Shown one piece after another: positions 18,507 to 41,601 of a DNA stretch of 64,000 bases; positions within the stretch are counted from its first letter, which is position 1; each line of letters starts with the position of its first letter. The translations under genes and the position numbers were made by a program. Origin of the DNA: Planctomycetota bacterium (GTDB taxonomy: Bacteria > Planctomycetota > GCA-002687715 > CAIWVZ01). The notes under the pieces are model-generated. The model saw only the letters and a program-made list of their open reading frames with translations. It had not been told where the DNA came from and did not search any database. The stretch is taken from positions 160,001 through 224,000 of the forward strand of contig JBGANV010000007.1 of NCBI GenBank assembly GCA_044222185.1, read 5' to 3'.

Positions 18507-18564
18507 GGGGGCGGCGGCGAGATGCCGCAGGACCAGCCATGGCTGCTACATTGCCGCCTCAACC

Positions 18565-19632
18565 ATGGACACGGCATCGCACGCTGAACCGACGCTCACG
18601 TTGCGGGAAACACGCGACCGACTGAAGGACCTCTTCACCCCGCGGGCGCTCGTGTACTGGACCGACCTTCTCGCGTCGGCGACGGTCGGGTGGGGCGGCT
18701 TCGCCGTCGCGATGCAGCAGGCTCCGTGGAGCGCCGCGCACGTCGTCGCCACCGTCGTCAGCGCGCTTGCGCTCTATCGCTCCGCCATGTTCATCCACGA
18801 GCTGACGCACCTTCCGAAGGGTTCGCTGCCGGGGTTCCACACGGTGTGGGACCTGCTCGTCGGCGTGCCGCTTCTCCTTCCGTCGTTCATGTATCTCGGC
18901 GTGCACCTCGATCATCACCGTCGCAACGTCTACGGCACGGCCGGCGATCCCGAGTATCTGCCGCTGGCCCGCAGCTCGCGTGTGAAGACGGTGTTGTTCC
19001 TCGTGCAGCCTGTGGTGATCCCGCTTCTGCTGCTCGCGCGGTTCGCCGTGCTCGCGCCGCTGTCGGTGTTGCTCGGGTCCAAGGTGCGCGAGCTCATCGT
19101 CACGCGGGCTTCGGCACTCGTGATCAACCCGGCCTACCGGCGGGATCTCCCGACGGGTGCTCTGCGGGGACGCTGGGTCGTGACGGAGCTGTTGGCGTCG
19201 GCGCTCGTGCTCGGACTTCTCGGCGCGATCGTCGCGGGGCTCGTGAGCTGGCGCGTGGCAGGCCAGTGGTATCTCGTGTCCGTCCTGGCGGCTTTCGTCA
19301 ACCAGCTTCGCACCGTGGGCGCTCATCGCTGGCGGAATGCGGGCGGAGAACTGGACGTCATCGCCCAACTCGTCGATTCGGTCAACACGCCAGGCGGCGC
19401 ATTGACGGAGATCTGGGCGCCTGTCGGGTTGCGCTGGCACGGGCTCCACCACTTCGTTCCCGACATGCCCTATCACTCGCTCGGCGCGGCGCACCGCCGT
19501 CTCGTCTCGAGCCTTCCTTCCGATTCGCCGTACTTTCAGACGGTATCACCCGGCATCTTCGCGAGCCTCGCCACGTTGTGGCGAGAGGCGGGCGAGGCCG
19601 GTGGTCGCGCCGTCGCGGAGCCGGGGCGCTGA
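18565..19632 (+). CDS. Fatty acid desaturase family membrane protein
   Basis: Three His boxes: HELTH, HLDHH, HGLHH..P; TM segments. Confidence 0.9.
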   Translation: MDTASHAEPTLTLRETRDRLKDLFTPRALVYWTDLLASATVGWGGFAVAMQQAPWSAAHVVATVVSALALYRSAMFIHELTHLPKGSLPGFHTVWDLLVGVPLLLPSFMYLGVHLDHHRRNVYGTAGDPEYLPLARSSRVKTVLFLVQPVVIPLLLLARFAVLAPLSVLLGSKVRELIVTRASALVINPAYRRDLPTGALRGRWVVTELLASALVLGLLGAIVAGLVSWRVAGQWYLVSVLAAFVNQLRTVGAHRWRNAGGELDVIAQLVDSVNTPGGALTEIWAPVGLRWHGLHHFVPDMPYHSLGAAHRRLVSSLPSDSPYFQTVSPGIFASLATLWREAGEAGGRAVAEPGR

Positions 19633-20459
19633 TGGCGGACGCGCTCAGTCGGTTGCTGCTCCGAAGCGTTCCGCCGTTCGACCTGCGCGATCTCGGCTCC
19701 GCGTCGCGACTGCTCGTGCCGAACGGCGCGGCGTTCGGAACCCCGCAACTCTGGCGCGGCGATGTGGCCTGGGATTGGGTGCGTCAGAAGCCTGATCACT
19801 ACTGGCTGAAGGGTGATCGCGGCAGCGCGCACTCGGGCGTCGACTTCGGGTTCTTCATCCGGCGCGGGCACGTCTACCCGCTCCCCGTCGGCTTGCCGGT
19901 GCGCGCGCCCGTTCGCGCGATCGTCGAGAACACGGGTCGCGATGCGGATCCAGAACGCGGCCCCGGCGGCGTCGTCCTCGGACTCGGGGACGAAGACGCG
20001 CCGCGCTTCTACGTTCACCTGACCGATTTCTGCGCCACGGTGCCTCACGGTGCTCACGTGCGTCCTGGCCAGATCCTCGGCCACACCGTTCCCTACTCGC
20101 GGCGCTTCCCCGTCGTCGTGATGCACATGGGGGTCGGCATCCTCCAGCCCGACGAACCACCCAATCCCATCGACCCTTCACCGCTCCTCCGCCGCTGGCG
20201 CGTCCGTCATCCGGTGACGCCCGGATCCACGTGCGATGCCTCGACGTTGAACCGGACGAGGTCCGGCACCTGGATGGCGCCCGGGAAGATCGCCGACCTC
20301 ACCGCCTGCGCCACGTGGGATGTTGGTCAATCGGGAGCGCGTCACGTTCAGGGCCTGGGCGTGTACCGACGCGCCCGCCAGGCCGGGCACGTAGGGGATT
20401 GGAAAGGCGATCGTGCTCGATCCCGGGTTTGCCGATCCGCTCGCACCGAGCACGCCTAA
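19632..20459 (+). CDS. M23 peptidase-like protein (degenerate HxH) whose last 45 codons appear foreign
   Basis: TGATG coupling to desaturase; HSGVDF, PVRAP, YVHL, V.PGQ.LG, MHMG, NPIDP; frame supported by synonymous-only divergence of the duplicate at 24646-24834. Confidence 0.7.
   Translation: MADALSRLLLRSVPPFDLRDLGSASRLLVPNGAAFGTPQLWRGDVAWDWVRQKPDHYWLKGDRGSAHSGVDFGFFIRRGHVYPLPVGLPVRAPVRAIVENTGRDADPERGPGGVVLGLGDEDAPRFYVHLTDFCATVPHGAHVRPGQILGHTVPYSRRFPVVVMHMGVGILQPDEPPNPIDPSPLLRRWRVRHPVTPGSTCDASTLNRTRSGTWMAPGKIADLTACATWDVGQSGARHVQGLGVYRRARQAGHVGDWKGDRARSRVCRSARTEHA
20134..20322 (+). repeat. Direct repeat copy 1 (3' part of the M23-like gene)
   Basis: Aligns without gaps to 24646-24834 (176/189 identical); 20182-20321 identical to 29089-29228. 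Confidence 0.97.
20322..20456 (-). pseudogene. Orphan 3' fragment of an FG-GAP-type surface protein gene
   Basis: Minus strand reads GVLGASGSANPGSSTIAFPIPYVPGLAGASVHAQALNVTRSRLTN, homologous to the end of the gene at 29206-31755. Confidence 0.85.
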
Positions 20460-20505
20460 GGCACACCCGCCCTTGTGTATTCCGTATGCGGCTTGAGGTC
20501 TAGAA

Positions 20506-22617
20506 TCACGGCGGGGCCGCGGTCTCGTCAGCCGGTCCGCCCTGCCAGTCGGCGGCGATCTCCGACCAGTCGATATCCCGCTCGACTGGCTGTCCCTTGT
20601 CATCCCTGCCAACCCAGACTTCCCAGAAGTCCGGATCGTCGGAGCGCGGCTGTTGCGACTTGGGCAGGTCGTTCATCTTTACCAGAACCGGCAGTTCCGA
20701 TGCCCACCCGAGCAGAATGGCGCTCTGGGAGGGCAGCGAGGGTAGCTCGCGAAGAAGCCCGCGAAGATTGTCCGGGACAAGCCGGTGGACGAGTTCCTGA
20801 TCGCGGTCGTTGCTGATCCGGTGAAGCAAGAAGGTGTTGCATTGCGAAAGCACCGTAGGTGAAAGCTCGGACGGGCGCTGAGACGAAAGCACCAGTCCAA
20901 GCCCGAACTTTCGCCCTTCACGAGCGATGCGCTCAAAGACCTGGCAGCAGATGCCTGCGGCGTCCTGATTCTCGACATCCTCCTTGTAGCGCTTGATGAA
21001 CGTGTGTGCCTCCTCCATCACGAGCACCGTGGGCAGCGCAGCGCCATTCGATTTCAAGTAGCGCTGCAGGGCCTCGAATACGATGCGAGCGATGACAGCG
21101 GCGACGACATGGACAATTTCGGTCGGAACAAGTGAGAGGTCTATTATCGATATGCAATCGTGCTCGGCGCCATCCACTCCGATGTAGTTGTTGAGCCACT
21201 TATGGAGCGTGACGTCCCCCGTATCCGCGATTATCGCGCTCATCTTCGGGTCAGATAGAAAGGCTCGAATGCGAGCAACCAGGAAATCGAGGAACGGGCT
21301 GACGTTCTCTTGCTCTGCGAGAACCTCAAGGTGATCAGCGAGGTCGGTGCCGATGAACGCCAGTGGAACGTCGTCGTCGGGGCCTTGTTGGTACACAATC
21401 CCACCCAGCGTAGTCAGGACGGCGTCAATCGCCACGTCGATCCTCTGGATCTCGTCGTTCGTGAATGCCACGAAATAGACGAAGCTCAGTTGTTTCTGCT
21501 TGTCGAAACCATCCTTGCGCTTGGCGTTGAGCGCGCTTCGGATTGCGCCTGCGACGTGGTCGAGCGAGCAATTGGGGCACTCCGACTTCCACCGATCCAG
21601 GTCCGAGACCACAGCCTCTAACTGGAAGCCGAACTTTGTCGGCTCCGCCTTTACAGCGTTCGAACGCAAGTCTCGCCGGATCGAAATCAGTGTGGACGAT
21701 AGATATCGGCGAAGGGCGAGCTTCTTCTCCTGGTCTGTGGGATCGGCAGCTGCAGTCCTCCCGGCTTTGACCTCGCGCAACGCCCGCCGAAGTAGCGGTC
21801 GTTGCGTTCTCGCACTCGCCTGCGTGAAGGAGCACCACTCCGCGCTGTTCCAGAACCACAGCGGCACCTTCAGTGCCTGTTCACCCTCGGCGGGGCTCAC
21901 CTTGAATATCCGTGCTTTGATCGGGTCGTCGCTGCTAAAGGCGCGTGAGTATTCGCCGTTAGGGTCCAGCACGACGAACCGAGCGTTGGGTCGCCCTCCT
22001 GGCCGTGCCCTTGCTGCCTGTTCGAGGCTCCAGCGGATCAGCCCGGCCACGGAGCATGACTTTCCGCTGCCAGTGTTCCCCAAAACGGCGAGGTGGCGCC
22101 CGAACAATCGGTTGGGGTCGACGGTGACCTCCGCATCGCCGGCGAGCGGGCTCGTGCCGATTTTGACCCTGCGTCGGTCGCCCGACTCAACGATCGATCG
22201 GAGCTGATTCGCTGTAGGTAGGACCACCGCAGCGCCGACCGATGGCAATGCAACGGCGCCTCTCTTGAAGGCATAATTCCCCCCTGGAGCGAGCCGGAGA
22301 AGCGTACCGAGCGGGTTGATCCGCAGTCGGCGGAGCGGATACGGCAGATCGACTAATCCGAAATCCTGCACCCCTCGTCGCTTCGGGAATGGCGATCGTT
22401 CGACAGTGAGCCACTCGACCTGCCCCACCAGGAAGGCTTCGTCCACCGCGACTAGGAGGTAACCGTTGACCCTGGGGAACGGTCGCGGTCCACCGGCAAT
22501 TAGGGCAACGGAGTCAGGCGCCTCAATGTCGAGGGTGACCTTGATCTCGTCCGGGGAGACGAAATCCACGGCGCCGATGCGCAGGCTGCCCGCTTGCTCG
22601 AATGGGGACTCGCTCAC
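20506..22617 (-). CDS. herA: HerA-like ATPase (HAS-barrel-like N-terminus, DUF87 type), partner of the SIR2 protein
   Basis: Walker A GNTGSGKS, Walker B VMEEAH, REGRKFG, SSQRPSE, LSQCNT; GTGA overlap with SIR2 stop. Confidence 0.92.
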   Translation of the reverse strand: MSESPFEQAGSLRIGAVDFVSPDEIKVTLDIEAPDSVALIAGGPRPFPRVNGYLLVAVDEAFLVGQVEWLTVERSPFPKRRGVQDFGLVDLPYPLRRLRINPLGTLLRLAPGGNYAFKRGAVALPSVGAAVVLPTANQLRSIVESGDRRRVKIGTSPLAGDAEVTVDPNRLFGRHLAVLGNTGSGKSCSVAGLIRWSLEQAARARPGGRPNARFVVLDPNGEYSRAFSSDDPIKARIFKVSPAEGEQALKVPLWFWNSAEWCSFTQASARTQRPLLRRALREVKAGRTAAADPTDQEKKLALRRYLSSTLISIRRDLRSNAVKAEPTKFGFQLEAVVSDLDRWKSECPNCSLDHVAGAIRSALNAKRKDGFDKQKQLSFVYFVAFTNDEIQRIDVAIDAVLTTLGGIVYQQGPDDDVPLAFIGTDLADHLEVLAEQENVSPFLDFLVARIRAFLSDPKMSAIIADTGDVTLHKWLNNYIGVDGAEHDCISIIDLSLVPTEIVHVVAAVIARIVFEALQRYLKSNGAALPTVLVMEEAHTFIKRYKEDVENQDAAGICCQVFERIAREGRKFGLGLVLSSQRPSELSPTVLSQCNTFLLHRISNDRDQELVHRLVPDNLRGLLRELPSLPSQSAILLGWASELPVLVKMNDLPKSQQPRSDDPDFWEVWVGRDDKGQPVERDIDWSEIAADWQGGPADETAAPP

Positions 22618-24047
22618 GATGTCGTGCCCGCCTGATCCGCCGGGAGAGAATCGGCGTTGCCGGCATCATTCGGCGCGGTGCCCCAGCGCGCCTTGAGCAG
22701 CTCCGCCATGCGCACGGTCGTCCGGTCGATCGCAGGCTTCGGCAAGTACTGGTCGACGAGGGTGCATAGATCGCCGAGGTGGTCTCCAATCAAGAGCGTG
22801 ATTTGTGCTTGTCGGCCCAGGCGCTCGTACGTGCGCACGATGCGTCCAAGAGGATCGCCATGCGAAATGACGACCAGGTGCGTGGACGGGATCGTCAGCA
22901 TGTCCTCGATCACTCGGTTGATGTGCTCGTCGCCGAAGCTGTAGCCGTAGCAGACGGCTGTGCTGTTCGGTCGGCAGATCGAGGCCGCGAAGTCCCGGAA
23001 CAATTCAACGTAGGGGTAAGCGGTCGTTTCGCGGTCCTTGGCGGCGTTGGGATAGATCATCAGGTGCGTCGCATCGACGCCACTCAGACCCGGAGCAGCC
23101 AGATAGGGTGCTGCGTCCCTGGCGCCAAATGGCAGGCCAATCCGCCGGATCGCCCCATCACAGTCCAGCCAATCGACAGATCCGTGGAGCTTGGTGAATC
23201 GCGCGACGCCTTCGAGGTAGCGCGGCTCTCCACGGATGCCGGGGGGATTGTAGTGGAGGTCAACATCCAAGCGCGACGCACGGAATACCGGTGCCAACGT
23301 GCCGACGAAGCGGTCAATGAGGCGCAGCCCCGCCGCATCAGCGCCCGCCTCGATGAGGCGGTCGTAGTTGGTTGTGAAGAGCTGTAAGCGCTCGCGTGTA
23401 CCAGTACGGCTGGCGAAGCTCATCAGGAAGCTGACGACGTAGTTGAACGCTTTCTCGCGTCTGTCAACGTTTGCTGTCGCGATGTCGTGTTCACCTCGCA
23501 AGATGGAGCTGGCGAACGTTTGAAGGACCTTATTCAGGCTCTCTCGCAATGCATCAACCCGCTTGCGCTCCGATGGTCGATCCGGCGTCGACGCTGCAAG
23601 GATCTCGAGGCCGCGAAGCAGTTCGTTGGCCACTCGGATCTGATCCTCGAGGTTTCCGGCCCTGCGCCCACTCCTCTCAGCCGTGCGCTTTGCCTCTTGT
23701 TTGATCTCGTCGGTCAGAACCGCGAACGGGACGGTCTCCAATCCGGGCAACGCCGCATTCCTCGCTATTTGGTGAACGGCGTGCGTCAGTCCCGAACCGA
23801 CGAGTAAGGAGAGGTTCTCGGACTGGACCAGGGCCGTCAGCCATGGCTCGATCCGAGGGCGCAACTTCTCGGGGCCGAAGGCCTCTGCAGGCTTGGCCCA
23901 AGAACACGTCGCGTCGACGGTCAATCGAAACGTGGCGGTTCCTGGCGCCGCTGATTCACGATTCAGAAGGACAGGAGCGTGGTCGTCGCGCGCCTTAAGT
24001 ATTTGCCCACCGGCATCCAGGTGCTTCCTCTGAAGTTCGACGGTCAT
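22614..24047 (-). CDS. SIR2-like domain protein (putative NADase effector)
   Basis: LLVGSG, FTTNYD, KLHGSVDW, IYP...K, GYSFGDEHIN. Confidence 0.9.
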   Translation of the reverse strand: MTVELQRKHLDAGGQILKARDDHAPVLLNRESAAPGTATFRLTVDATCSWAKPAEAFGPEKLRPRIEPWLTALVQSENLSLLVGSGLTHAVHQIARNAALPGLETVPFAVLTDEIKQEAKRTAERSGRRAGNLEDQIRVANELLRGLEILAASTPDRPSERKRVDALRESLNKVLQTFASSILRGEHDIATANVDRREKAFNYVVSFLMSFASRTGTRERLQLFTTNYDRLIEAGADAAGLRLIDRFVGTLAPVFRASRLDVDLHYNPPGIRGEPRYLEGVARFTKLHGSVDWLDCDGAIRRIGLPFGARDAAPYLAAPGLSGVDATHLMIYPNAAKDRETTAYPYVELFRDFAASICRPNSTAVCYGYSFGDEHINRVIEDMLTIPSTHLVVISHGDPLGRIVRTYERLGRQAQITLLIGDHLGDLCTLVDQYLPKPAIDRTTVRMAELLKARWGTAPNDAGNADSLPADQAGTTS

Positions 24048-24155
24048 TGCTTCTCTCCGCCGATGACGCCCGTGGGCGAACCCGCAGTCTTCTTCGCGGT
24101 CGCGAGGAGGTTGGCGACCCGCTCGGCTTCGTTGGCATTCATTTCTTCGACCGCT

Positions 24156-24645
24156 GGGACAGACCGATCGCTCGTGGAATTCGGCGGCTCGGGTGGCTGC
24201 TGATCAGACTATGCGACCGCCTCCATTTTGTCGAGGTTCCGAACAGGTTCGACCAGTGCCGGCATGTACTCGTGGCAGATGACGCGACGGAGCCTCGCCC
24301 TGGCGTGGGGGCGGATCGCGGTGGCTCCCCTCATCGCCATCTTGGCACTCGACCACCGCATCACACTCCGGCACAGGTCGCGCGTCCCGGCGAAGATGCT
24401 CTCGATCGCGTGCGTGCTCAGGAGGACGTGGCGGAGTTCATCGGCAACCTGGAGCCGGTGATTCGCGACCGATAATTCGAGGCACTCCTTGAGGCTTCCA
24501 GGCGCGCCGGGGCTCATGTCGTTGAGCTTCGACGCGCGCTGCGCGAGCGCCTTCCCGGCGGCGCCGCACGGCTTCATGCCCGAGGCGGCACGGAGGGCCC
24601 GGCGGATCGTTCCCTGGTCGTTCTCGAGACGGCGCGAGCGTGCGT
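24156..24645 (-). mobile_element. Degenerate IS256-family remnant (3' part of transposase and probable terminal sequence)
   Basis: PGAPGSLKECLE...LRHVLLSTHAIES...VMRW...LRRV resembles the IS256 transposase C-terminus (PGAAASLREGLE...TTNPIES...VKRW); stop at 24209; end position is approximate. Confidence 0.75.
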
Positions 24646-24860
24646 TCGGCATTCTCCAACCCGACGAACCGCCCAATCCCATCGACCCGTCACCGCTCTT
24701 GCGTCGCTGGCGCGTGCGCCATCCGGTGACGCCCGGATCCACGTGCGATGCCTCGACGTTGAATCGGACGAGGTCCGGCACCTGGATGGCGCCCGGGAAG
24801 ATCGCTGACCTCACCGCATGTGCCACGTGGGATGCGCGGTGGGTCGACGTCTTCGACTGA
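24646..24860 (+). repeat. Direct repeat copy 2: synonymously diverged 3' end of the M23-like gene with probable native stop
   Basis: Same 62 residues as copy 1, then ARWVDVFD-TGA (24858-24860). Confidence 0.95.
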
Positions 24861-25074
24861 CGGTGGGCCCGCTCTCGCGCGGATCTCCTCGATTGACGCA
24901 GCGGCGGGGGGCGATGCGACGGGGACGGCTGGTGAGCAGGCGGCGAGCGGCGCGTGCACGGATGGGGCACCGACCCACCAGCGGGCGCGCCCTTCGACGC
25001 AACGCTCGCCGGAGCGTGCGGTCGCAACCCCCTTGACCGATCCGACGAGGCCCGCGCAGCACCGCACAGCAGAT

Positions 25075-25118
25075 CCTCGCTCGGCTACCTGCCCGGGAGG
25101 CTCGTGGCTGGAGCGAGG
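25075..25118. terminator. Imperfect hairpin between convergent gene ends
   Basis: CCTCGCTC pairs with GAGCGAGG, plus GGCTAC/GTGGCT with G-U pairs; no U-tract. Confidence 0.35.
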
Positions 25119-25165
25119 GCCGGCTCGGTCGCGGCGAGGCGTCGCGAGCGCGCCGGGGGTGCCGC

Positions 25166-28100
25166 TCAAAGCACGAGGAAGAGGACCTCTTGTGGCTGAA
25201 GTGTCGTGTTTTGAAGCGCCCCGTACGTGGTCGCGACGCCGTTCGAGATGGCGTTGCGGTACACCGTGACGGCCGTCCCTGGCGCGATCGTGACGCCACC
25301 AATCTGTGTCGGCAGCGTCACCGCGACCGATTGGTTGCTGTTCCAGGCATTTGCGACGAGGAGTCCCGTGGATGTCGAGAGCTTCCACGCCGAATGCCAC
25401 GCGACGGGGACCGTGACCAAGAATGGCGGCCCACCTACCTCCTTGTAGGTGGCACTTGTCACGCACGAGAACCCGTTAGTCGTCTGCATGACGCCGTCAT
25501 TCAGGAAGTTCCGCGCGGGTCCCTGTCCGGTCCGCACACAGTTGATGAGAAACGCCAGGGGTACGGGATCCGAGCGCTGCGGCGTCGGGAGCATCGCCAG
25601 GGTTGTGACGCCGAGCGCGCACGCTCCACCCTGGCCGCCCTGCGATGTCGGAGCGAGGTACTCCGCAGCGAGCATCCATTCGATGAGACCGTATGCCTCC
25701 CACGCCCCCGACGTGAGCGTCTTCGCCAACGCGACGAGCCAGCTCTGCACCTGGCGATCGCGCTCTGATTGGCCCATGCCGGGATATGTCGTCGGCACTC
25801 TGATGTCCCAGACCATGGAGCGCACGATTTCGGAGTACACGAACTGAAAGGCCGGCACGACCTCGCTCCCCGGAACTCCCGGCGCCGGCCACCCGCTGAC
25901 GGCGCTGGACCTGATCCCCTGGACGGCGACGGTTCCGATCGACAGCTCGCACGGGTCCTCGATGGCCATCTCGAAGTTCGGGTTGCCGGCCTTTCCTGCC
26001 GCCAGCGTCGAGTTGAACAGGTTCTTGAGCGCGTCGGCTTTCCAACGACCGTTGCCGATCGGATGCCCCGAGGTCGGATCGAAGTTGTCGTAGACCGTCC
26101 CGCCATTCATCTGATCGAACAGGTAGAGATCGACCGCCGATGCCTGGTTGTTGTCCGCTGCCATGCGGGCCGCCGCCTCCTGGTGACGCGCGACGGTGAA
26201 CGGCTTGGACGGGTCCATCAGGTAGTGGTTGGAGGTCCACGGGATGAGATCGAGGTCCTGATCCCGATGGAAGTAGTTCCCGAACCGGTCTACGCAGGCG
26301 ATGCCCTGCCACGGAGGCGGATCGCTGGTCACGCCTGCATACCCTGGAACCCAGAAGTCGTAGTTTCCTGGTGGGCAGCCCGGAGTGATTTCGGTTCGGG
26401 TCACGGCCCAGTTCAGACCGGCGATCATGGCTGCCGCGCGGTTGCCCGTTCCGTGGAGTCCGCTCCAGCACGACAGGATCGCCTGCTCGGAGTGGATCGC
26501 GGGGTAAGGACCGCCGGGCGAGCTCGGCGTGCCAATCACGTTCAGCGGCACGTAGTACGGGCCGATGTACGTCCCGTTCTTCTCGAACCCCCGGAACATC
26601 CCCATCATTTCGCCGTTCACCCCGCCCGGGGAGGCGAGTGCCTGTTGCCAGGCGGACAGTACCGTCGCCCACGATTCAATGGGCGCAATCTCGCCTCCGA
26701 AGCCCCGCGGCTGGAGGTCCGCCTCGAATATGGTCGGACGGGTCCGCGTCCAGGCGGCCGGCGTCCGGGCCGCCGCAGCGCTCCACCACGGCTGTTGCCG
26801 TGCCCACGATCGGTACGTCTCTGCGGCGGCCATCCAGCTCCCGACGCAGGGGTGAATGACCGTCTTGTACGCCGGAACGGCGACGTTCGCCTCGCTGGGA
26901 ACGTTCTGCGAGATGCTCAACCGCACGACCTGGTTCGCGGCGTCCCAGTTCGTCGCGACTGTTTTCGCCTCACCAAACGGGTCGTGGGCCGCGATTCCCA
27001 GCCCGCGAACGCCATCGTAGACCGCAGCGAACTGCATGGCTGCCAGGCCTGGGTATTCGACCGTGCCTTCCCAGTCCCCGTAGGGATGGCCCGCGTCGAT
27101 GTTCCTGGGGTTCACGACGTACCCCCCGCCCCGCGGGTTGAAGATGCGGAGTTCGCGCGCCGCGTCGGAGAGCGGCGCGTTGACCTGGAGATCCGGGCAA
27201 GTGATCCGTTCGAGGATCACGGCCGGCGATGGCGTCACCGACGGTTTGAAAGCGATCTCCGTGTTCGATGGCCCCGGAACCGTCGGTTCGGAGGAGATTT
27301 CCACCATCATCCCGAGCGTGGGCGGCAGTCCAGACTTGGCGGTTGCTCGGATTCCCTCCACGGTGCCCTCGACGAAAGGCGTCACGTCGAAGGCTGCGCC
27401 GTCGCTGGTCGAGGACGAAGGGTTTTGGTCGCTCACCGCGTTGCGGCGCGAGAGTGTGTAGAGGGGCGACCCACCGGCCTTGAGCAGGTTCTCGCCGACG
27501 GGGGTCCTGTTTCCATCGACGTTGCGAACTTCCATGAGCCGGCCGCGGGACGCATCGAACATCACGGAGAGCGCCGTGCTCTTGACCTCGTAGCAGATGG
27601 GCGTCTCGAGGGTGCCGAATTCGGCGTCCGTTCCCGTGAAGTCCACGTTGTCGACATAGAGCCGGACGCCGGGCGCGTTGGCGCATTCGACGAGCAGTCG
27701 CACCCTCTCGGCCTCCGGGCCGACGGTGTAGGACACGGTGAATTCCTGCCAGTTTTCCGCGCGTGGGACCTGAGTCGACGTCGAACCGCTGGCGATGCTC
27801 CAGGTGGGTTTGAACCCCGCCGCATGGAGAGTCACGACGGCGTTCGGCGATGCCGCCTGCGGCAGGTAGAGGATGCGGACCTTCGCCCGAAGGGTTTTGT
27901 TCATCATCGCCGCCGTCACCTTCCACTCCTTGGCCAAGTGGTAAAGCGTGTTTCCCGCGGCGACGTCGATGCGACACGACGTGCTTCCACAGTTGACGAG
28001 GCCTGCCGCCGGCTCCGGCTCGACCATGTCGGATGGCCAGTTCACCGTCCAGTTCTCGGGGACCATGCTCGACCCTTGCTGGTACCAGCGCTCGAAGTTC

Positions 28101-28171
28101 GAGTTGAGGAGATTCTGCGCATTGAGGCTGCCGAGGACGGCGAGGAGAACGACTGCGCATCGGCGTTTCAT
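25166..28171 (-). CDS. Secreted protein with N-terminal CBM-like jelly roll and DUF6259-like (putative glycoside hydrolase) region
   Basis: Signal peptide, SD GGAAGG; N.NFE.W...PENW and LYVDNV; YPG...MQF.A.YD...GL...AHDP.G..K; LFDQ; VPAFQFVY. Confidence 0.7.
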   Translation of the reverse strand: MKRRCAVVLLAVLGSLNAQNLLNSNFERWYQQGSSMVPENWTVNWPSDMVEPEPAAGLVNCGSTSCRIDVAAGNTLYHLAKEWKVTAAMMNKTLRAKVRILYLPQAASPNAVVTLHAAGFKPTWSIASGSTSTQVPRAENWQEFTVSYTVGPEAERVRLLVECANAPGVRLYVDNVDFTGTDAEFGTLETPICYEVKSTALSVMFDASRGRLMEVRNVDGNRTPVGENLLKAGGSPLYTLSRRNAVSDQNPSSSTSDGAAFDVTPFVEGTVEGIRATAKSGLPPTLGMMVEISSEPTVPGPSNTEIAFKPSVTPSPAVILERITCPDLQVNAPLSDAARELRIFNPRGGGYVVNPRNIDAGHPYGDWEGTVEYPGLAAMQFAAVYDGVRGLGIAAHDPFGEAKTVATNWDAANQVVRLSISQNVPSEANVAVPAYKTVIHPCVGSWMAAAETYRSWARQQPWWSAAAARTPAAWTRTRPTIFEADLQPRGFGGEIAPIESWATVLSAWQQALASPGGVNGEMMGMFRGFEKNGTYIGPYYVPLNVIGTPSSPGGPYPAIHSEQAILSCWSGLHGTGNRAAAMIAGLNWAVTRTEITPGCPPGNYDFWVPGYAGVTSDPPPWQGIACVDRFGNYFHRDQDLDLIPWTSNHYLMDPSKPFTVARHQEAAARMAADNNQASAVDLYLFDQMNGGTVYDNFDPTSGHPIGNGRWKADALKNLFNSTLAAGKAGNPNFEMAIEDPCELSIGTVAVQGIRSSAVSGWPAPGVPGSEVVPAFQFVYSEIVRSMVWDIRVPTTYPGMGQSERDRQVQSWLVALAKTLTSGAWEAYGLIEWMLAAEYLAPTSQGGQGGACALGVTTLAMLPTPQRSDPVPLAFLINCVRTGQGPARNFLNDGVMQTTNGFSCVTSATYKEVGGPPFLVTVPVAWHSAWKLSTSTGLLVANAWNSNQSVAVTLPTQIGGVTIAPGTAVTVYRNAISNGVATTYGALQNTTLQPQEVLFLVL

Positions 28172-28366
28172 GGTGGTCCTTCCCGTGGCTCTTGTGGCGG
28201 GTCGACCATGAAGAGTCCATTTCGACGCGCGATGTCACGCGCGCACTCGAAAATTCGAGCGCACGGGCACTCACGGTCGCTTCTCGCGGCGGCAAGAGGA
28301 GAGGCGGCCGACCGCGGGGCGTCGCCGGCGGCGGGGCTCGCACACCGCCCGCTCGCCAGCGAGCCG

Positions 28367-29088
28367 TCAGGGTCTCAGGGTCGCCCGATAGAGATTCGTG
28401 GTACTTCCCACAGCCGGGTTCGACGTGGACACCGTGAGTGTCTGGATCCCTGCGGCGAATCCGAGGAGCCCCGGGTTCTGCGGGATCGTGATGGGGAGCG
28501 CCGTGCCGGTTGGCAGCGTCGCCACGCGATGGGCGAGAGCCCGACGAGCGCCACGCCGAAGTTCCCGATCGGGATCGAGCCGTCGAGGGCGCCGATCACG
28601 TAGACGGACATCCCCGGCACACCGTTGATGACGTCGAACGTCAGCGTCGCGCCGAGACGCGGTGCGCCCGTCACGCTCATGAACCAGATCGGCCGCTCGA
28701 ACGCACCCATCTCGGCGGAAGCGGTTCCGCTCAACGTGGAATCGATGATGCGAGGCTACTCGTCCCAATCCTTCGCGACGAGCGTCGCGAGCGACGCATC
28801 CGCTGTCCCGATGCACGGCGACGTCGCCGCGAGGTGAAGGTGACCCAGCGACGCCGCAATGACCTGTGGATCGACGTCGATGTTTCCGCGGAAGCCCGGA
28901 TACGCGCCATCGGAGTTGAAGACGCGGATGCCAGGAACGGCACCCAGGTTGGTCACGTTGCCCCACAGGATCGAGTTGCGGATCGAGCCCGACCAGCCCG
29001 TGCCCGACAGCCCGACGTGGCACCCCGTGACGGTCGCGTGAACGATGTCGAAGCTGCCACTGGTGAGCCGGATGCCGTCCCTGGCGCA
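28367..29088 (-). pseudogene. Decayed 3' fragment of a paralog/allele of the beta-helix gene at 32079-35762
   Basis: Colinear with 32079 to about 32800; in-frame TAG at 28756-28758 where the intact gene has CAG; 1-bp deletion near 28525; 5' end cut by repeat copy 3. Confidence 0.92.
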
Positions 29089-29228
29089 CGCTCCTCCGCC
29101 GCTGGCGCGTCCGTCATCCGGTGACGCCCGGATCCACGTGCGATGCCTCGACGTTGAACCGGACGAGGTCCGGCACCTGGATGGCGCCCGGGAAGATCGC
29201 CGACCTCACCGCCTGCGCCACGTGGGAT
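29089..29228 (+). repeat. Direct repeat copy 3 (140 bp, identical to 20182-20321)
   Basis: Base-by-base comparison shows no mismatch. Confidence 0.97.
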
Positions 29229-31755
29229 CCTGCGCGTGAACGAAGATGCCCGCGATTCCCGGCACGTAGGGAACCGGGAACGTGATCGTGCTCGCTCCCG
29301 GGTTTGCCGATCCGCTCGCACCGAGCACGCCCGAGCCGGCGAGCGCCGCGGTCGTCGGATCGATGAACACGGTGCCGAACGGTGGGGCCTGGATCTGGGC
29401 CGCCCCGAGGGAGAAGTAGAGGTTCCACTGGTCGCCCGGCGCGCCGAGCACGTCGAGTTTGAGTGACCCTCCCGGCCTGGGGAACGTGTTGACCGCCAGC
29501 TGCCGCGTGCAGTTCGTGATGAACATCGGGCCTGGCGAGATGATGTCGATGTCCTGGTCTCGATCGAAGTCGGCGAAGGCCGAGTATTCGGTCCAGCCGA
29601 TGCTGTAAGGCGACGCCGACATGGGAGCACCGGCCGTGAAGGTGCCGGCCCCGTTGTTGATGAAGATCGTCGCGCCGTCGAGGATCAGATCCAGGTCGCC
29701 GTCGTTGTCGAGGTCGCAGAGCTGCGGGGTCTGGCCCTGGTAGAGCTGGCCGATCGGCAAGGGCGGGCCGGGCGTGAATTGGCCCGCTCCGTTCCCGAAA
29801 TACACGACGGCATCGACGATCACGTCTGCGAGCCCGTCGCCGTTCAAGTCACCTGCGACGGCCGTGTAGCCCGTGATCGGCGTCGCCACCGCATTGAACG
29901 TCGCCGGACCCGTCCGGAGGTACACGTAGCTCTGCGCCGGGAAGTTGACCGGAGCGACGGCGAGAAACGAGTTGAGCTGCCAGATGTCCATGAGGCCGTC
30001 GCCGTTCACGTCGGTGATACACAGCGCTGTGGTGTTCCCTGGGGGGCCGAGCCGTTGTGGGACGCCGAAACCAGCCGAGCCGTTGTTCAGCATGATCTCC
30101 GTCGAGAACGAGCGCAGATTCGGAAACGCGATTGGCGACGCGATGATGTCCACGTCTCCATCCCCATCGACGTCGGTGGTCGCGACCAACGCACGACCCA
30201 GCGCCGCGGGGTTGATGACGGTGGAGGTGAAGGACGTTCCATTGTTGATCATGAGCACGTCTGGCCCCGTGAGCCATGGGAACGTCGGCTGGTAGGGAAC
30301 GAGTACGTCCGAGTCTCCGTCGCCGTCTGCGTCGAAGACGCCGACGCTGATGAAGCTCATCTGAATTGGCTGGGGAAGGGCGATACTCGGACCGGGAGTG
30401 AAGTAGCCGTCACCGTCGTTGCGACCGGTGACGAGTAGCTGGGGCGCGATGAAACGGAGTCCGAACAAATCCGGAATTCCGTCTTGATCGACGTTTCCGA
30501 CGAACACGTTCGTCAAGTCTCCCAGCCCACCGAGCGGCTGCGGGAACGGTGCTATCTGGCCCGTTCCGGAATTGAACAGCACCGCGGGGGTGTAGTCGGG
30601 CGCAAGGGCACATACGACGTCCTTGTCGCCGTCACCGTCGACGTCGGACTTGAACGCCCGCGGTGCCCCGCTCAGGAGGCTCGCGCTGAGGAAGCCCGTG
30701 AGCACTTGGGCTACGGCTGCGAAATTCCCGTTGGGCAGCATCGGATGCACTTCGATGCTCGGAGTGACGTAGCGGTCGCCGAAGACGAGGATGTCATCTC
30801 GCTGGTCCGAGTTGACATCGAGAGCGACGATGTGTTCCGCAGGGCCCAGCTCGATCGATGGGCCATACACAGGGCTGGTCAACGGCCCGTAGATCAACGT
30901 GGCCGGGCCTCCCGCCTGGGACCAGGAATTCACGCGCTCCGCGATGATGAGGTCGGGAAACACGTCGTTATTGAAATTGCCCAGGGTCGCGGACCAGATG
31001 GGCGCAGCCCCTGTCCCAGGGATGGGAGTCAGCGAGAACGAACCCGCCGTGTTGATCGCGATCACTGCCGCAGTGCCGCCTTGGACGTCGCGGGGCGAGA
31101 ATAGGATGTCGAGGTCGCCGTCGTTGTCGAGATCGCTGAGCGCGATCCGGCCCGTGGGGAGTCCCGTTTGCGGCAGCCCGGTCGGGCTCGCGACGAACGT
31201 CGTTGGCCCGACGTTCAGCCAGACGGCGCCTCGCCCCGGCACCGGGCCGACGGCTGGGAGGTATTGCTCCGTCGTCATCACCAGGTCTGGGCGGCCGTCA
31301 CCGTTGACGTCGCCGGCGGCCAACGTCACTGCCCCGGCTCCGAAGCTGGGGTAGAGCGCCGGCAACGGCGGGGTGGTCGCCGATGTCGTGTCGTAGGCGA
31401 ACCCGGGCGACGCATACGCGACGACGACTCCGTTGCCGAGTTGCGGAATCGCGGCGAGATCCATGAGCCCGTCGCCGTTGAAGTCGGCAGCAACCACCGA
31501 TTTGGGTCGTAGGAACGGTGGCGCGATGCAGGGACGCCTGAAATGCCCCGTGCCGTCTCCGAGGAGGATCTCCGTTTCCGTCACGAGGTCGATCGTTCCG
31601 TTGCCGTCGAGGTCCGCCGCGCAATAGACCCCCTCCGCGATGGCCGGCATCGGCCGCTCCACGATGCGGTAGATCGGCGCCTGTCCCATGCCCATCGCCG
31701 TCGCCAGCGATCCCACCCCCCACACGATCCCTGCGAACCAGTTTCGAGTCGCCAT
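29206..31755 (-). CDS. Secreted FG-GAP/VCBS repeat protein with C-terminus clipped by repeat copy 3
   Basis: Many D.[DN]GDG..D repeats; SD GGAGGG before ATG 31755; last residues DPTWRRR come from the antisense of the repeat. Confidence 0.88.
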   Translation of the reverse strand: MATRNWFAGIVWGVGSLATAMGMGQAPIYRIVERPMPAIAEGVYCAADLDGNGTIDLVTETEILLGDGTGHFRRPCIAPPFLRPKSVVAADFNGDGLMDLAAIPQLGNGVVVAYASPGFAYDTTSATTPPLPALYPSFGAGAVTLAAGDVNGDGRPDLVMTTEQYLPAVGPVPGRGAVWLNVGPTTFVASPTGLPQTGLPTGRIALSDLDNDGDLDILFSPRDVQGGTAAVIAINTAGSFSLTPIPGTGAAPIWSATLGNFNNDVFPDLIIAERVNSWSQAGGPATLIYGPLTSPVYGPSIELGPAEHIVALDVNSDQRDDILVFGDRYVTPSIEVHPMLPNGNFAAVAQVLTGFLSASLLSGAPRAFKSDVDGDGDKDVVCALAPDYTPAVLFNSGTGQIAPFPQPLGGLGDLTNVFVGNVDQDGIPDLFGLRFIAPQLLVTGRNDGDGYFTPGPSIALPQPIQMSFISVGVFDADGDGDSDVLVPYQPTFPWLTGPDVLMINNGTSFTSTVINPAALGRALVATTDVDGDGDVDIIASPIAFPNLRSFSTEIMLNNGSAGFGVPQRLGPPGNTTALCITDVNGDGLMDIWQLNSFLAVAPVNFPAQSYVYLRTGPATFNAVATPITGYTAVAGDLNGDGLADVIVDAVVYFGNGAGQFTPGPPLPIGQLYQGQTPQLCDLDNDGDLDLILDGATIFINNGAGTFTAGAPMSASPYSIGWTEYSAFADFDRDQDIDIISPGPMFITNCTRQLAVNTFPRPGGSLKLDVLGAPGDQWNLYFSLGAAQIQAPPFGTVFIDPTTAALAGSGVLGASGSANPGASTITFPVPYVPGIAGIFVHAQDPTWRRR

Positions 31756-32001
31756 GTGCCCTCCGTCGTTCTCGTCGCGAAACCCTCCGAGCGATCGAGC
31801 CTTCATCGAATCGAGGAATGCCAGCGCGGTGCCCGCGCGTGCGCTCGCATCCCATCGGGCCGCAGCTCCGAGTTGAAGGCGCCCGCGAGGCAGGCGTCGT
31901 TCGTCGTGAGTACGCGTGAGGACTGCGCGACGTTCAGGCCGAATTGCCGAGCAAATTCGCACTCTCGATCGTGCGACTCTGCGCGCGCTGCTCGCGATGT
32001 T

Positions 32002-32044
32002 CGTGGCGGTCTCACGAGAGTCGCGGGCTCATGAGACTGCCACG
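32002..32044. terminator. Long hairpin just downstream of the beta-helix gene
   Basis: CGTGGCGGTCTCA pairs with TGAGACTGCCACG (one mismatch, G-U on the plus strand), with inner GAG/CTC stem; no U-tract. Confidence 0.5.
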
Positions 32045-32078
32045 CGACTCCCCCGAAGTGGCGTCGTTCGAGGCGGCC

Positions 32079-35000
32079 TCAAGGCCGGATGATCGCCCGA
32101 TAGAGATTCGTGGTGCTGCCGAGAGTCGGGTTCGATGCAGTGACCGTCAGCGTCTGGATTCCTGCTGCGAACCCGAGCAGCGCGGGGTTCTGTGGAATCG
32201 TGATCGCGAGCGGTGTCCCAGTCGGCAGCACCGCGAGCGCGATGGGAGAGAGTCCGACGAGCGCCATGCCGAACGTCGAGATCGGAAACTCTCCGTCGAG
32301 CGCACCGAGCACGTACACGGACGTGCCAGGAACACCGTTGATGACGTTGAACGTCAGCGTTGCGCCCGGGCGCGGCGCTCCCGTGACGGTCATGAACCAG
32401 ATGGGACGCTCGAACGCGCCCATCTCCGGCGAAGCAGTCCCACCGAGAGTCGAGTCGATCATGCGCGACTGTTCGTCCCAGTCCTTTGCGACGACCGACG
32501 CGACGGCGAAGTCCGCGGTGCCGATGCACGGCGACGTGGCGTCGAGGTGCAGATTGCCGAGCGATGCCGCGAGGAACTGCGGGTCCGAGTCGATGTTCCC
32601 GTTGACGCCAGGATAGGCGCCATCGGAATGGAACACTCGATTGCCCGGAACGCTGTCGAGATTCGTGACGTTGCCCCAGACGATCGAGTTTCGAACGGAG
32701 CCCGACCAACCGTTGCCCGCCAGGCCGACGTGGCACCCCGTGACGGTCGCGTGCGCGACGTCGAAGGTCCCGGCAGAGAGCCGGATGCCGTGGCTCGCGC
32801 AGGCCCGCGCGACCCAGTTCACCCCGGCGCCGGCCAATGCCGTGGCGCCGATGCCTCCAGCGAACGAGCGCTCCACGCGGACCGCTCGGGCGGAGACCTG
32901 TGGCGATTGGATCGAAAGCCCGTCCACGAGGCCGCCGCCGCAGTTTCGGACGATGACGTTCTCGATCGACGAAGCCGCCGCGCCGGCGTGGTAGACGATT
33001 CCGCTCCATTGACCGGCGATGCCGGTCGTCGGCCCACCACCTTCGGAGTCGCCCCCGAACGTGTCGTCGTCGTGCGACGTGAACACGACGGGCTCGTATC
33101 CCGTCCCGCGGATGTCGAGGGAGCCGTCGACGGTCACGCTCTGCGACCAGTCCCTGAACTTGATCACCGTGCCGGGGAGGATGTCGACGCTTCGCCCCGC
33201 CGGCACGACGAACGACGTGAAGAACGTGATCGCCATCCCGGCCTGGGGGCCGATGACGAGGTCCGTCGACGCCGTCCCCGCGACCACGCGAATCGTGTCT
33301 GAGTGATTCCCCGAGGCGTAGGTGTTTGCGATGCCTGGCAGGGCGTCGACGGGCACTTCGTCGACTGCGTATCCGCCGTTGTCGGTGATGTGGCACTCGA
33401 CGACCTGGGGCCGCGAGTTCGGGTTCGTGAACTTCAGTCCCGCGGAGTAGCCGTCGCGAAAGGTGCTCGCATACAACGTCGGGTTGCTTCCGTCGAAGGC
33501 GACGCACGGCTCGAGGCCGTAGCCGGTGAAACGCACCGTCGTCTCCGTGATCAGGCTCGCGGATGCGCCGGCTCCGAGGACGAGACCGCGCCAGTCGCCG
33601 GATTGCCCGACCGTGGGGCCATTGCCGTTCGTATCGCCGCCGACGGAGTCGTCCCGGTACGACGTGAAGCACACCGGGGCGGCACCAGTCCCCTGAGACA
33701 TCAGCGTCCCTGAGACCTGAACGCTCGAGGCGCTCCCGAGCTTGACGACCGTTCCCGCGTGGAGTGTGAGGGTCTTGCCGGTTGGAACCGTGAGCGTGCC
33801 GTTCACGAGGATCGCACCACTGATCCCGTTGGCGGGATCGAGCGTGAGGGCCGTCGCCGCGACGGTGCCGTTCGTGACGCGGACGGCGTTGAAGCCGCAA
33901 CCGGACGCAATGTTGCCGTTCAGCGACGCACAGGCATCGATGCTCGCGTTGTTGATCGCCGTGCCCCCGCAACCCACGATCTGGCACCCGGTGATCGTCG
34001 CGCCGCTCGTCGGAGACAGGCCGGTGGCGTTGAGGTTGATCCCGTCATAGGCGGCGCTGACGACTCGGCACCCATCGAGCGTGATGTTCGCCGCTTGGAG
34101 ATCGAGCGCCGCGAGGCCGGTTCCGCCCGCGAATCGGATCTCGAGTCCGTGGACGACGCTCGCCGCGGAAGTCGGCAGGAAGGTGACGCCGCTCCAACGA
34201 CCTTGCGCACCGGTCGACGGCCCGTTGTTGTTGGTGTCCCCAAAGGCCGAGTCGTCCTGGATGCTCGTGAGAATCGCAGGCGATCCGCTCGAGCCGTTGA
34301 CCAGCAGCGTCCCGAAGCACTGGAACGCGCTTCCCGGTTGGAACTTGATGCACGTTCCCGCAGCGAGCGTGAGCGCCACGCCCGCGGGAATGGCGAGGTT
34401 CGTCGCGGCGACGAGCGCGCCGTTGAGGCAGTTCGCCGGTGTGATCACCCTGCTGGCGGGCAGCGTGTTCGTCGTGATCCGGACGTAGTTGCCCGTGTTC
34501 CCCGTGGCCGTGTTGTTCGAGAGCCCGCTTACGGCACCGAGCGCCACGCCATGGATGGCCGTCCCACCGCAACTCGTGATCGTGCACCCCGTGATGGTCG
34601 GGAAGCTCGTCCCCGAGAGGTCGATGCCGTTGCTGTACGAGGATTCGACGCGGCAGGAGGAGAGTGTGGGATTGCAGCCGGAGAGCGAGATCCCCGCCGT
34701 GAGCGAACCTCCCGAGTATCGGACGACGAGCCCGGTGAGACTGCTCGCCGACGCGTTGGTGCTCAGGTTGACGCCCACCCATTGACCCGGTGTCCCGCTC
34801 GACGGGCCGTTGTTGTTCGTGTCTCCGGCGACGGCGTCGTCGGTGAGCGACGTGAATACGACCGGGGCTGCGGTCGTTCCGTTGGTGACGAGTGCGCCAT
34901 CGACGTTGACGGCAGAGCTGGGTGCCATCTTCAGGATCGTGCCGGCTTGCAACGTGAGGGAACGGGCCGCGGGGACCGTCATGGTGCCAGCGACGACGAG

Positions 35001-35762: not shown

Positions 35763-35943
35763 GGTGTTTCCCTCGGTGAAAGTGGGGCGAGCGTCCATAT
35801 CGGGGTGGAAGCGTCGCCCGCCGAGGGGAAGTGACACGGGTCATCCGCCAGCACGCGGATTCTGCGCGACTACACCAAGTCTCGGTTGCGGCGAGAGTTG
35901 CAGCAGCGCGCCGAGCCAGGCCAAGCCCGCGCGAACCCCCACA

Positions 35944-37047: not shown

Positions 37048-37112
37048 CGAGGTCTCCGGGGGGGCGACGGGGGTGGTCAGTTCCCCATCGCGTCTGAGGT
37101 AGTGGAGTTCGG

Positions 37113-39233: not shown

Positions 39234-39411
39234 GGCGGGACGCGACGCTCGACCGTCGCACGATCGCACGCTGCGTCGAGCGCGTTCGCGCGATGACCAT
39301 GCGCGTTCGTGCGATGTTGCAACGTCGCGACCTCCTTCTCGCAGCCGGCTGAAAGATCGATAGTCGACCCACGTTCGACGAGAGCACCTGCTGCAACCGG
39401 AGGAGGCATTC

Positions 39412-40917: not shown

Positions 40918-40953
40918 CGTCGGCGCGGTGACCCGGCGCGGGAAGCGTGCTCG

Positions 40954-41601
40954 TCACCCGCGCGGGATCAGCACCGTTGCGGGCACTTCGATGTACTTCA
41001 CGAGGATGGCGACCTTCGCGTGTTCGCCCTCGACGACGGCGGTGAAGACGATGCGCCACACCTGCTTCGATTTGTCGAGCACGCGGGCGACGTACTTGTC
41101 GACGGGGTGCCAGGGGCCATCCGGCGTGTCCCCGTGCTGCATCTGCTCGATCTCGATGATCTTCGGGTAGCCCTGATCCGCGAGGGCCTTCTGGATCGCC
41201 GGGCTCGGGTGGATCGGGATCGACGTGCACCCGACGCGTTGGTTGTTGGCGTCGTAGTACTCGGTGAACGGGCGGAAGCCGGATCGCGAGTACGTGATGC
41301 GCCACGAGCCGGGCCCGCAGCCGGGCGCGCTCTCGCAAGTGAAGTTCCAGCCCGGGTGCTTGTCCCGCGCGATCTCCGCCAGCTTCTCCGGGCAGTCGCT
41401 CACGGGATCGACGATGCCGCTGATTCGTCCCATGGAGTCGGCCCAGATCTCGGTCCGCATGGCCTCGCGGTCACCGGAGCCATGTCCGCCCTGGTGGGAC
41501 CCATCGGCGCAGCACCCACCAAGCACCAGGAGCCCGATGACGCAACAGATTGTCTTCACGACGAGTCCTCCGAGCGGGATTCCACGTTCGAACCACTCCA
41601 T
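40954..41601 (-). CDS. Hypothetical secreted or lipoprotein, Cys-containing
   Basis: Fills the gap between neighbours, typical high-GC codon use, hydrophobic N-terminus ending GGCC; start may be GTG near 41559. Confidence 0.6.
   Translation of the reverse strand: MEWFERGIPLGGLVVKTICCVIGLLVLGGCCADGSHQGGHGSGDREAMRTEIWADSMGRISGIVDPVSDCPEKLAEIARDKHPGWNFTCESAPGCGPGSWRITYSRSGFRPFTEYYDANNQRVGCTSIPIHPSPAIQKALADQGYPKIIEIEQMQHGDTPDGPWHPVDKYVARVLDKSKQVWRIVFTAVVEGEHAKVAILVKYIEVPATVLIPRG

Follow-up and report, generated by a model that had tools for sequence, protein, structure and literature searches.

The 64-kb window analysed here (G000:C2:160001-224000) comes from a planctomycete genome that was assembled from a metagenome. 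The assembly comprises 7.08 Mb in 16 contigs and is 93.8% complete, and contig C2, which holds the window, is 307 kb long. Behind a gene resembling M23 peptidases (the M23-like gene) the window contains accessory genes in layers, and truncated copies of the 3' end of the M23-like gene lie between these layers. The locus is probably a stack of alternative versions of one chromosomal locus, added without a recombinase by homologous and illegitimate joints. Five lines of evidence carry this interpretation, namely the anatomy of the junctions, an even read depth, signatures of selection in the duplicated gene ends, the absence of a recombinase and the synteny of the flanks. An earlier note on the sequence had described an island in which herA, sir2, an IS256 remnant, a DUF6259 gene and a beta-helix tail lie between three M23 ends, with all cargo genes on the minus strand and with a mixture of defence and cell-surface functions. 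Both the order and the orientation were recovered, and a SIR2-HerA pair indeed stands together with probable surface or secreted proteins. The features of the stack, in window coordinates, are as follows.

19632-20459, plus strand: M23-like gene in its present form, 275 codons
20134-20322, plus strand: copy 1 of the M23-like 3' end, within the intact gene
20322-20456, minus strand: truncated tail of a second FG-GAP allele, 135 nt
20506-22617, minus strand: herA, predicted ATPase of the SIR2-HerA pair (PADLOC; Pfam DUF87/HerA)
22614-24047, minus strand: sir2, predicted NADase partner of herA (PADLOC; Pfam SIR2_2)
24209-24616, minus strand: IS256-family transposase remnant (protein identity; NCBIfam)
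24646-24860, plus strand: copy 2 of the M23-like 3' end, including the 8 final native codons and the stop codon
25166-28171, minus strand: DUF6259-domain gene, 1001 aa (Pfam)
28367-29091, minus strand: pseudogenised 3' part of a second beta-helix allele, approximately 240 codons
29089-29228, plus strand: copy 3 of the M23-like 3' end, 140 nt
29206-31962, minus strand: resident FG-GAP/VCBS repeat gene, 918 aa (Pfam FG-GAP_3, E 4.5e-67)
32079-35837, minus strand: resident right-handed beta-helix gene, 1252 aa (Pfam Beta_helix, E 7.2e-19)

The 3' end of the M23-like gene is iterated

The M23-like 3' end is present in three places and no others, since the whole-assembly search with the repeat core that the earlier note had suggested matched only 20134-20322, 24646-24834 and 29089-29228 in the 7.08 Mb. 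Copy 3 (29089-29228) is identical to positions 20182-20321 at 140/140 nt, and copy 2 (24646-24834) is identical to copy 1 at 176/189 nt (93%). The differences in copy 2 are located in 12 codons, and 13/13 are synonymous in the M23 frame. Read in the other five frames, the same differences cause 5-13 amino acid changes. This result suggests that the M23 frame was under purifying selection while copies 1 and 2 diverged; a rough estimate of the synonymous divergence (dS) of the M23 end is 0.3. The duplicated 3' ends of the M23-like, FG-GAP and beta-helix genes differ in their level of divergence as had been claimed, being identical, changed at synonymous sites only, or pseudogenised. Spacing of the layers from start to start is nearly equal (4512 and 4395 nt), which with only two events may be coincidence.

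Codons 1-230 of the M23-like gene (to 20321) are homologous to those of its relatives. The native last 8 codons are absent, and in their place the intact gene reads 45 codons into FG-GAP-derived sequence. Copy 3 is also cut after codon 230 and, like the intact gene, fused to an FG-GAP 3' end; its antisense strand holds the last 7 codons and the stop codon of the resident FG-GAP gene. Copy 2 alone in the window keeps the native end, ARWVDVFD, with the stop codon at 24858-24860. A similar end is found in P0002, a 238-aa protein from another assembly that is 93% identical to the M23-like protein and terminates in KRWVDVFD. The M23-like proteins of four relatives from the same family end in D-xRxxDVFD, with DVWG in one of them (G002). 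The only complete M23-like gene of this genome is one without the conserved xRWxDVFD end and with a foreign tail of 45 residues, and the orphan copy at 24646-24860 is the sole place where the native end is preserved.

M23 is a tentative name for the anchor gene. Its Pfam match (E 0.0028) lies below the cut-off, and a profile built from six M23-like sequences and compared with the PDB gave M23 peptidases at E 0.0015-0.04 in 5 of the 6 matches listed.

The layer junctions appear illegitimate

The left ends of the copies were compared to examine how the layers are joined. Copy 2 begins at the position equivalent to 20134 and copy 3 at that equivalent to 20182, so that their left ends differ by 48 nt. 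On its left side copy 2 is joined directly to the interior of the IS256 transposase gene, and copy 3 to the interior of a beta-helix gene. The 60 nt to the left of the junctions match the M23-like gene at only 13/60 (copy 2) and 14/60 (copy 3) positions. Seen from the other side, the beta-helix fragment matches the resident gene at 46/60 positions in the last 60-nt bin before the junction and at 20/49 beyond it. The sequences joined overlap by no more than about 1-3 nt. Because copies 2 and 3 do not begin at the same M23 position and are each joined to the inside of an unrelated gene, the layer junctions appear to be illegitimate joints and not element ends or attachment (att) sites. No target-site duplication was seen by eye at the outer borders of the island. 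The possibility that copy 2 extends further upstream was considered and rejected, as M23 residues 137-166 match with only about 8 identical residues and with gaps, and the DNA at 13/60.

The beta-helix fragment has diverged from the resident gene evenly as far as the junction, and thus cannot be a simple copy of that gene made within the genome. Copy 2 shows its first difference from copy 1 no further than 8 nt from its junction.

Cargo genes and gene fragments

The herA product matched the PADLOC HerA model at E 8e-257 over residues 4-692 of 703, and the sir2 product matched the SIR2 model at E 5.6e-155 over residues 60-458 of 477; herA and sir2 share a 4-nt overlap. As adjacent genes with full-length matches to the SIR2-HerA models they are predicted to constitute a SIR2-HerA anti-phage system. 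GC content at third codon positions (GC3) is 0.73 in herA and sir2, compared with 0.81-0.87 in the other genes, suggesting that both came from further away than the remaining cargo. The DUF6259 gene scored 51.9 bits in Pfam (cut-off 28.7), and its product has a signal-peptide-like N-terminus. It was found in 0/22 other genomes of the order at E<=1e-10.

The IS256 remnant consists of the C-terminal 135 residues of a transposase and its native stop codon, and the 5' two thirds of the gene are absent. It is 61% identical to residues 301-435 of P0001, a 435-aa PF00872 protein (E 2.5e-38), and gave a weak match to transpos_IS256 in NCBIfam (E 7e-4); Pfam missed it. Pfam also revealed no PF00872 match above cut-off in the whole genome. 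An IS256 composite transposon was rejected as a source of the layers because only one remnant is present, with the last 135 of about 435 transposase residues. The minus strand at 24209-25084 contains a 291-codon open frame with a host-like GC3 of 0.81. This frame is a chimera of the IS256 C-terminus, the antisense of M23 copy 2 and a spacer, and gene callers would probably label it a hypothetical protein.

Two fragments derive from genes of the same families as the resident FG-GAP and beta-helix genes. In the FG-GAP tail, positions 20354-20456 (103 nt) are approximately 83% identical to 29229-29331, and the 34 codons contain 6 synonymous and 6 non-synonymous differences. The preceding 32 nt (20322-20353) have no counterpart at the resident FG-GAP junction. 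Over 713 nt the beta-helix fragment (28381-29091) shares 78.5% identity with 32093-32804, and it contains two lesions, one 1-nt deletion and one in-frame TAG. Compared with the resident gene it has a dN/dS (ratio of non-synonymous to synonymous divergence) of 0.16 and a dS of 0.82. With so low a ratio and only two lesions, the fragment appears to have belonged to a functional gene of another genome during most of the time in which it diverged. No fragments of the HEAT-repeat gene that forms the right flank were found within the island, where the best tblastn match besides the gene itself had E>=0.011.

A further beta-helix paralogue lies outside the window on contig C2, at approximately 33815-37403 and about 123 kb upstream of the resident gene. 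Its DNA is 66% identical to 32079-35673 and 70% identical to the island fragment.

The island lacks a recombinase and a tRNA

The earlier note had claimed that neither an integrase nor a tRNA accompanies the island, and searches of the window for tRNAs, of the island region for small open reading frames (ORFs) with domains and of the genome for tyrosine recombinases agree with that claim. No tRNA or tmRNA was found in the 64-kb window, and Rfam gave no match in 18000-38000 at E<=0.1. None of the 79 small ORFs in 18.6-29.8 kb had a Pfam match at E<=0.01, a scan that can overlook short remnants, as it also missed the IS256 fragment. The genome has 15 matches to the tyrosine-recombinase family PF00589, with 0 on contig C2.

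Self-comparison of the whole genome yielded 92 direct-repeat pairs, most of which reflect repeats inside proteins or neighbouring paralogues. Another interleaved stack was not recognised among them, although the list was not followed up pair by pair. One pair, C6:924295-924435 and 931457-931597, is a 141-nt direct repeat (91.5%) with its members 7.2 kb apart near the contig end. Since tyrosine-recombinase matches are located at C6:903631-904113 and 916387-916866, this pair could flank a conventional att-type element. Another direct-repeat pair is C16:18199-18311 and 22664-22776 (96.5%).

The stack occupies a lineage-specific interval

The genes that flank the stack are the following.

18385-19632, plus strand: fatty-acid desaturase, left flank
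35944-37125, minus strand: HEAT-repeat gene, conserved right flank
37098-38060, plus strand: SpoU methylase

Synteny of the desaturase/M23 and HEAT flanks, which the earlier note had proposed to check, was examined across relatives. The M23-like gene was identified in 4/40 other genomes, comprising 4/4 genomes of the same family (other genera) and 0/36 others. The M23-like protein is 57-61% identical in amino acid sequence to those of the four family relatives. Both flanks are conserved. The desaturase adjoins the M23-like gene in 4/4 relatives, and in 3/4 (G001, G003 and G004) the M23-like gene converges directly on HEAT, with the stop codons overlapping. G001 and G003 then continue with SpoU and tryptophan dioxygenase, as in the window. 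Direct convergence of M23 and HEAT in most relatives suggests that 20322-35943, approximately 15.6 kb, is lineage-specific and that the FG-GAP and beta-helix genes called resident here are themselves cargo.

G002, which belongs to the closest genus, has genes other than HEAT behind its M23-like gene, suggesting that this junction differs in that lineage too. These genes (G002:C359 2392-9399) encode an 803-aa and a 295-aa protein without Pfam match and a Ser/Thr kinase. Scans for closer relatives of the locus gave 3 loci in metagenomes and 3 loci in genomes, all at 56-61% identity.

Compared with G001 and G003, the window has three extra genes at 39364-45077, which encode an FG-GAP/Calx-beta protein, a 222-aa ORF product and a Ser/Thr kinase with WD40 repeats. 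In those two genomes tryptophan dioxygenase directly precedes the homologue of an 861-aa gene, and 39364-45077 is a second lineage-specific insertion nearby.

Read depth and assembly

Uneven coverage without spanning reads had been named in the earlier note as the sign of a misassembly of strain variants. Independent k-mer contigs of four sequencing runs were placed on 18000-37900 to obtain a depth profile for each layer. One bioreactor run, possibly the source of the genome, contains 98% of the sampled words, and 17 other sludge or wastewater runs contain small shares. In the source run, depth was 26.8 on the left flank, 25.6 on contig 20427-24749, 24.1 on contig 24776-29118 and 28.8 on contig 29302-37900. 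An 86-nt contig of the core common to copies 1 and 3 had a depth of 55.4, approximately twofold. Depth is even at 24-29x with a core at 55x, and two long contigs cross the junctions between IS256 and copy 2 and between the beta-helix fragment and copy 3. Equal depth in flanks and layers together with a twofold core argues that the stack does not consist of concatenated strain variants.

The junction between IS256 and copy 2 was also crossed by a 239-nt contig (24516-24754) from run X4, which belongs to another study, with 0 differences. The other sludge runs contained only pieces of 100% identity, apparently from the same strain. Short pieces from runs X4, X6 and X9 (2-4x) cover the layers unevenly and include many joints with sides of 20-29 letters (24452 to 29993 and 25133 to 37531, for example). 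They were not used as evidence. The uneven cover and the odd joints are located in sequence that resembles IS256 or FG-GAP repeats, and other organisms are their probable source.

Proposed origin of the stack

Two or more separate additions directly behind the M23-like gene are needed to produce this structure. Strains related to this one would carry different cargo at the locus, namely FG-GAP with beta-helix, DUF6259 with beta-helix, or an FG-GAP remnant with SIR2-HerA and IS256. DNA from one such variant locus would enter the cell and would pair with the resident M23-like gene by ordinary homologous recombination. The other side would be closed by an illegitimate, near-blunt joint within the last 190 nt or so of the resident M23-like gene. 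The fragment may have circularised and integrated by one crossover (Campbell type), or may have been linear and joined at one homologous and one illegitimate site (homology-facilitated illegitimate recombination, HFIR). Both routes would yield the same structure, and the locus is compatible with either. Each event would restore the M23-like gene in full at the head of the stack with the new cargo directly behind it, and would shift the older cargo downstream intact, preceded by the cut-off old M23 end. The observed layers have the form M23 end, cargo, and a truncated piece of what would have lain further to the right in the variant locus. The joints may cluster in the M23 3' end because only those upstream of the 3' end of the convergent cargo gene would leave that gene whole.

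Fragments in the layers have diverged under purifying selection, and a native-type M23 allele exists elsewhere, in P0002. Anchoring on a protein-coding 3' end, which the earlier note had asserted, is what we observe for the M23-like gene. That note had also proposed repeated, time-staggered acquisition. Repetition stands, with at least two additions at one convergent junction, but the timing by divergence does not. Because the differences appear to be allelic (13/13 synonymous in the M23 end, dN/dS of 0.16 in the beta-helix tail) and the identical block looks like a gene conversion tract, the levels of divergence do not order the events; any such order is conjectural.

Several observations weigh against this origin. 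The right ends of all three copies coincide, homology being lost immediately after TGGGAT, and copies 1 and 3 have a common M23 breakpoint with a 32-nt difference on the FG-GAP side. The shared breakpoint together with this difference requires an extra deletion or some site preference. From their sequence, copies 1 and 3 seem to have one older fusion of M23 to FG-GAP in common, while copy 2 runs on into the native end. The 100% identity of copies 1 and 3 adjoins sequence of approximately 83% identity, with heterology on both sides. Gene conversion would be the simplest account, and a very close donor is the alternative. Synonymous divergence is about 0.3 in the M23 end and 0.82 in the beta-helix tail, though one model gives both the same donor. 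A protein search for a closer allele or donor of the beta-helix fragment returned only the two genes of this genome (2 matches among 1212 candidates). No single-layer, donor-type locus with its cargo was found in the metagenome and genome collections scanned. Ku, the non-homologous end joining protein and a candidate maker of the near-blunt joins, was not found in the 94%-complete genome. A ComEC homologue was the only competence-related gene seen and says little on competence. Finally, the k-mer contigs break at the identical 140-nt core, and by themselves leave the order of its two exits undecided.

Alternative explanations

Site-specific integration would make the M23 3' end an attB site, the layers integrative elements with an integrase lost or acting in trans, and the copies att repeats. 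All three copies do stop at the identical nucleotide, two different FG-GAP-side sequences are fused to one M23 position, and 15 tyrosine recombinases are encoded elsewhere in the genome. The left ends, however, lie 48 nt apart and abut the truncated interiors of unrelated genes, and the layers hold fragments of neighbouring chromosomal genes (the FG-GAP and beta-helix tails) that are unexpected in a discrete element. Usual att cores are far shorter than 140-189 nt. Tandem tRNA islands and the staphylococcal cassette chromosome (SCC) composites at the 3' end of rlmH have a dedicated integrase, short fixed att repeats and discrete ends. They resemble the present locus in that a gene 3' end is reiterated between cargo blocks while the target gene remains whole. 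Here, in contrast, there is no recombinase gene in the island or on the contig, no repeats with fixed ends bound discrete elements, and the target is not a tRNA or tmRNA. The common right end is more simply explained by native continuation in copy 2 and one older M23-FG-GAP fusion in copies 1 and 3. Site-specific integration is quite improbable.

Tandem duplication within the genome, from the M23 end to the tail of the next gene, followed by cargo replacement through double homologous recombination with foreign alleles, would account for the tail-to-head junction of beta-helix interior and M23 interior, which is the classical mark of such a duplication, and for the similar unit lengths of 4512 and 4395 nt. 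Against it, the beta-helix fragment keeps its level of approximately 77% identity to the resident gene as far as the junction (46/60), and the first difference between copies 1 and 2 lies no more than 8 nt from the copy 2 junction. Replacement crossovers would have been needed within a few nucleotides of each junction, so that this explanation, which we regard as unlikely, involves more events than additive integration. An assembly artefact, in the form of concatenated strain variants or of an 8907-nt circle (20182-29088) threaded wrongly through the identical 140-nt repeat, has to be considered because the genome is metagenome-assembled and because the k-mer contigs, broken at the core, leave the pairing of entries and exits undecided. 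Under concatenation the flanks would have the summed depth of the layers, whereas flanks at 26.8 and 28.8 were observed with layers at 25.6 and 24.1 and the core at 55.4. Both novel junctions lie inside long contigs, the 140-nt repeat is shorter than ordinary read pairs, and a circle without a replication gene is unlikely to be maintained at exactly the chromosomal copy number. An artefact is thus very improbable indeed.

Recombinase-free addition by homologous and illegitimate joints could be carried one step further. The M23 3' end may be a self-renewing landing pad, used by cargo cassettes that circulate in the population, lack a recombinase and carry a piece of the host M23-like gene as an integration arm. 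The 8907-nt unit between the identical repeats would pop out and re-enter strains by RecA alone, and the near-equal layer sizes would reflect a fixed quantum of transfer such as a packaging limit. We consider this extension doubtful.

Comparison with known systems

As in displacement arrays, the intact M23-like ORF stands first, and its 3' end recurs twice in truncated form, each time ahead of older cargo. Rhs tip arrays, for which homologous recombination through circular intermediates has been proposed (Jackson et al. 2009, PMC2935791), are described there with the same traits: a complete anchor gene at the head, acquired alternatives that displace older ones downstream, iterated anchor pieces and no integrase. 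In that account the rhs core serves as anchor, and a toxin tip, fused in frame, forms the cargo together with its immunity gene (PMC2935791). The present locus, in contrast, is anchored on the 3' end of an unrelated M23-like gene that converges on its cargo. What it carries are complete, independent genes in the opposite orientation, a predicted defence system among them, and displaced cargo is intact. Polymorphic toxin tips with immunity genes are not among the cargo, which comprises SIR2-HerA, DUF6259, FG-GAP and beta-helix genes. By this comparison the locus appears to work like a displacement array, yet it is not a polymorphic-toxin locus.

Type VI secretion system (T6SS) effector-immunity arrays in Vibrio cholerae have been attributed to HFIR (Kirchberger et al. 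2017, PMC5361080). As portrayed in that study, they likewise have successive modules behind a conserved upstream anchor, keep older genes downstream and show heterogeneity beyond duplication. The arrays it describes keep orphan immunity genes and lose the old effector (PMC5361080), whereas the present locus retains old as well as new cargo genes and has scars made of pieces from both flanking genes. In E. coli experiments, single crossovers of circles gave duplications of 109-950 nt of the homologous gene end in 56/60 clones (PMC3240628). The duplications of 140 and 189 nt here fall within that range, and the proposed joints, one homologous and one illegitimate or a circle crossover, are of the same kind. 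Illegitimate junctions on one side of the insert were indeed found (13/60, 14/60 and 20/49 matches; overlap of at most 1-3 nt). The experimental cases reported there are laboratory constructs in E. coli and competent species (PMC3240628), whereas this locus is a natural planctomycete product in which the homologous joint is not visible.

Hotspots free of marks of mobile genetic elements (MGEs) are located between core genes, and homologous recombination in the flanks has been proposed as their driver (Oliveira et al. 2017, PMC5635113; Johnson et al. 2023, core defence hotspots (cDHS), PMC10250203). The present locus is similar in that accessory and defence genes lie between conserved core genes without integrase marks. 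Unlike those hotspots, which these reports present as known from many strains and explain by scar-free double-crossover replacement (PMC5635113, PMC10250203), it is additive, has scars and comes from one genome. The label hotspot, used in the earlier note, is in part appropriate for a locus known from one genome. That note had further suggested an undescribed variability system. Illegitimate junctions and copies that start at different positions argue against a dedicated system of this kind, and additive arrays with pieces of the anchor gene are already known.

In literature on HFIR, on core-gene defence hotspots and on hotspot organisation no description of exactly this arrangement was met in a search that was not exhaustive. 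The features that set the locus apart from the known cases are the 3' end of a convergent, non-toxin gene as anchor, whole-gene cargo including the predicted SIR2-HerA system, older cargo left intact, and a planctomycete host.

Significance

How MGE-free defence hotspots are constructed has been stated as an open question (PMC10250203; PMC5635113). The usual proposal of double crossovers leaves no scars and only replaces. The stack behind the M23-like gene would be a natural product with surviving scars, suggesting that a homologous joint combined with an illegitimate one can insert a defence system without loss of the earlier cargo. Should the landing-pad extension prove true, defence hotspots without MGE marks would have a general route of growth that leaves scars and adds cargo rather than replacing it. 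As the locus comes from one assembled genome, it serves as an instructive example rather than as a new principle. It comes from Planctomycetota, a phylum whose routes of gene transfer are poorly known, and it provides a search image for other genomes: truncated ends of flanking genes, each abutting a truncated unrelated gene.

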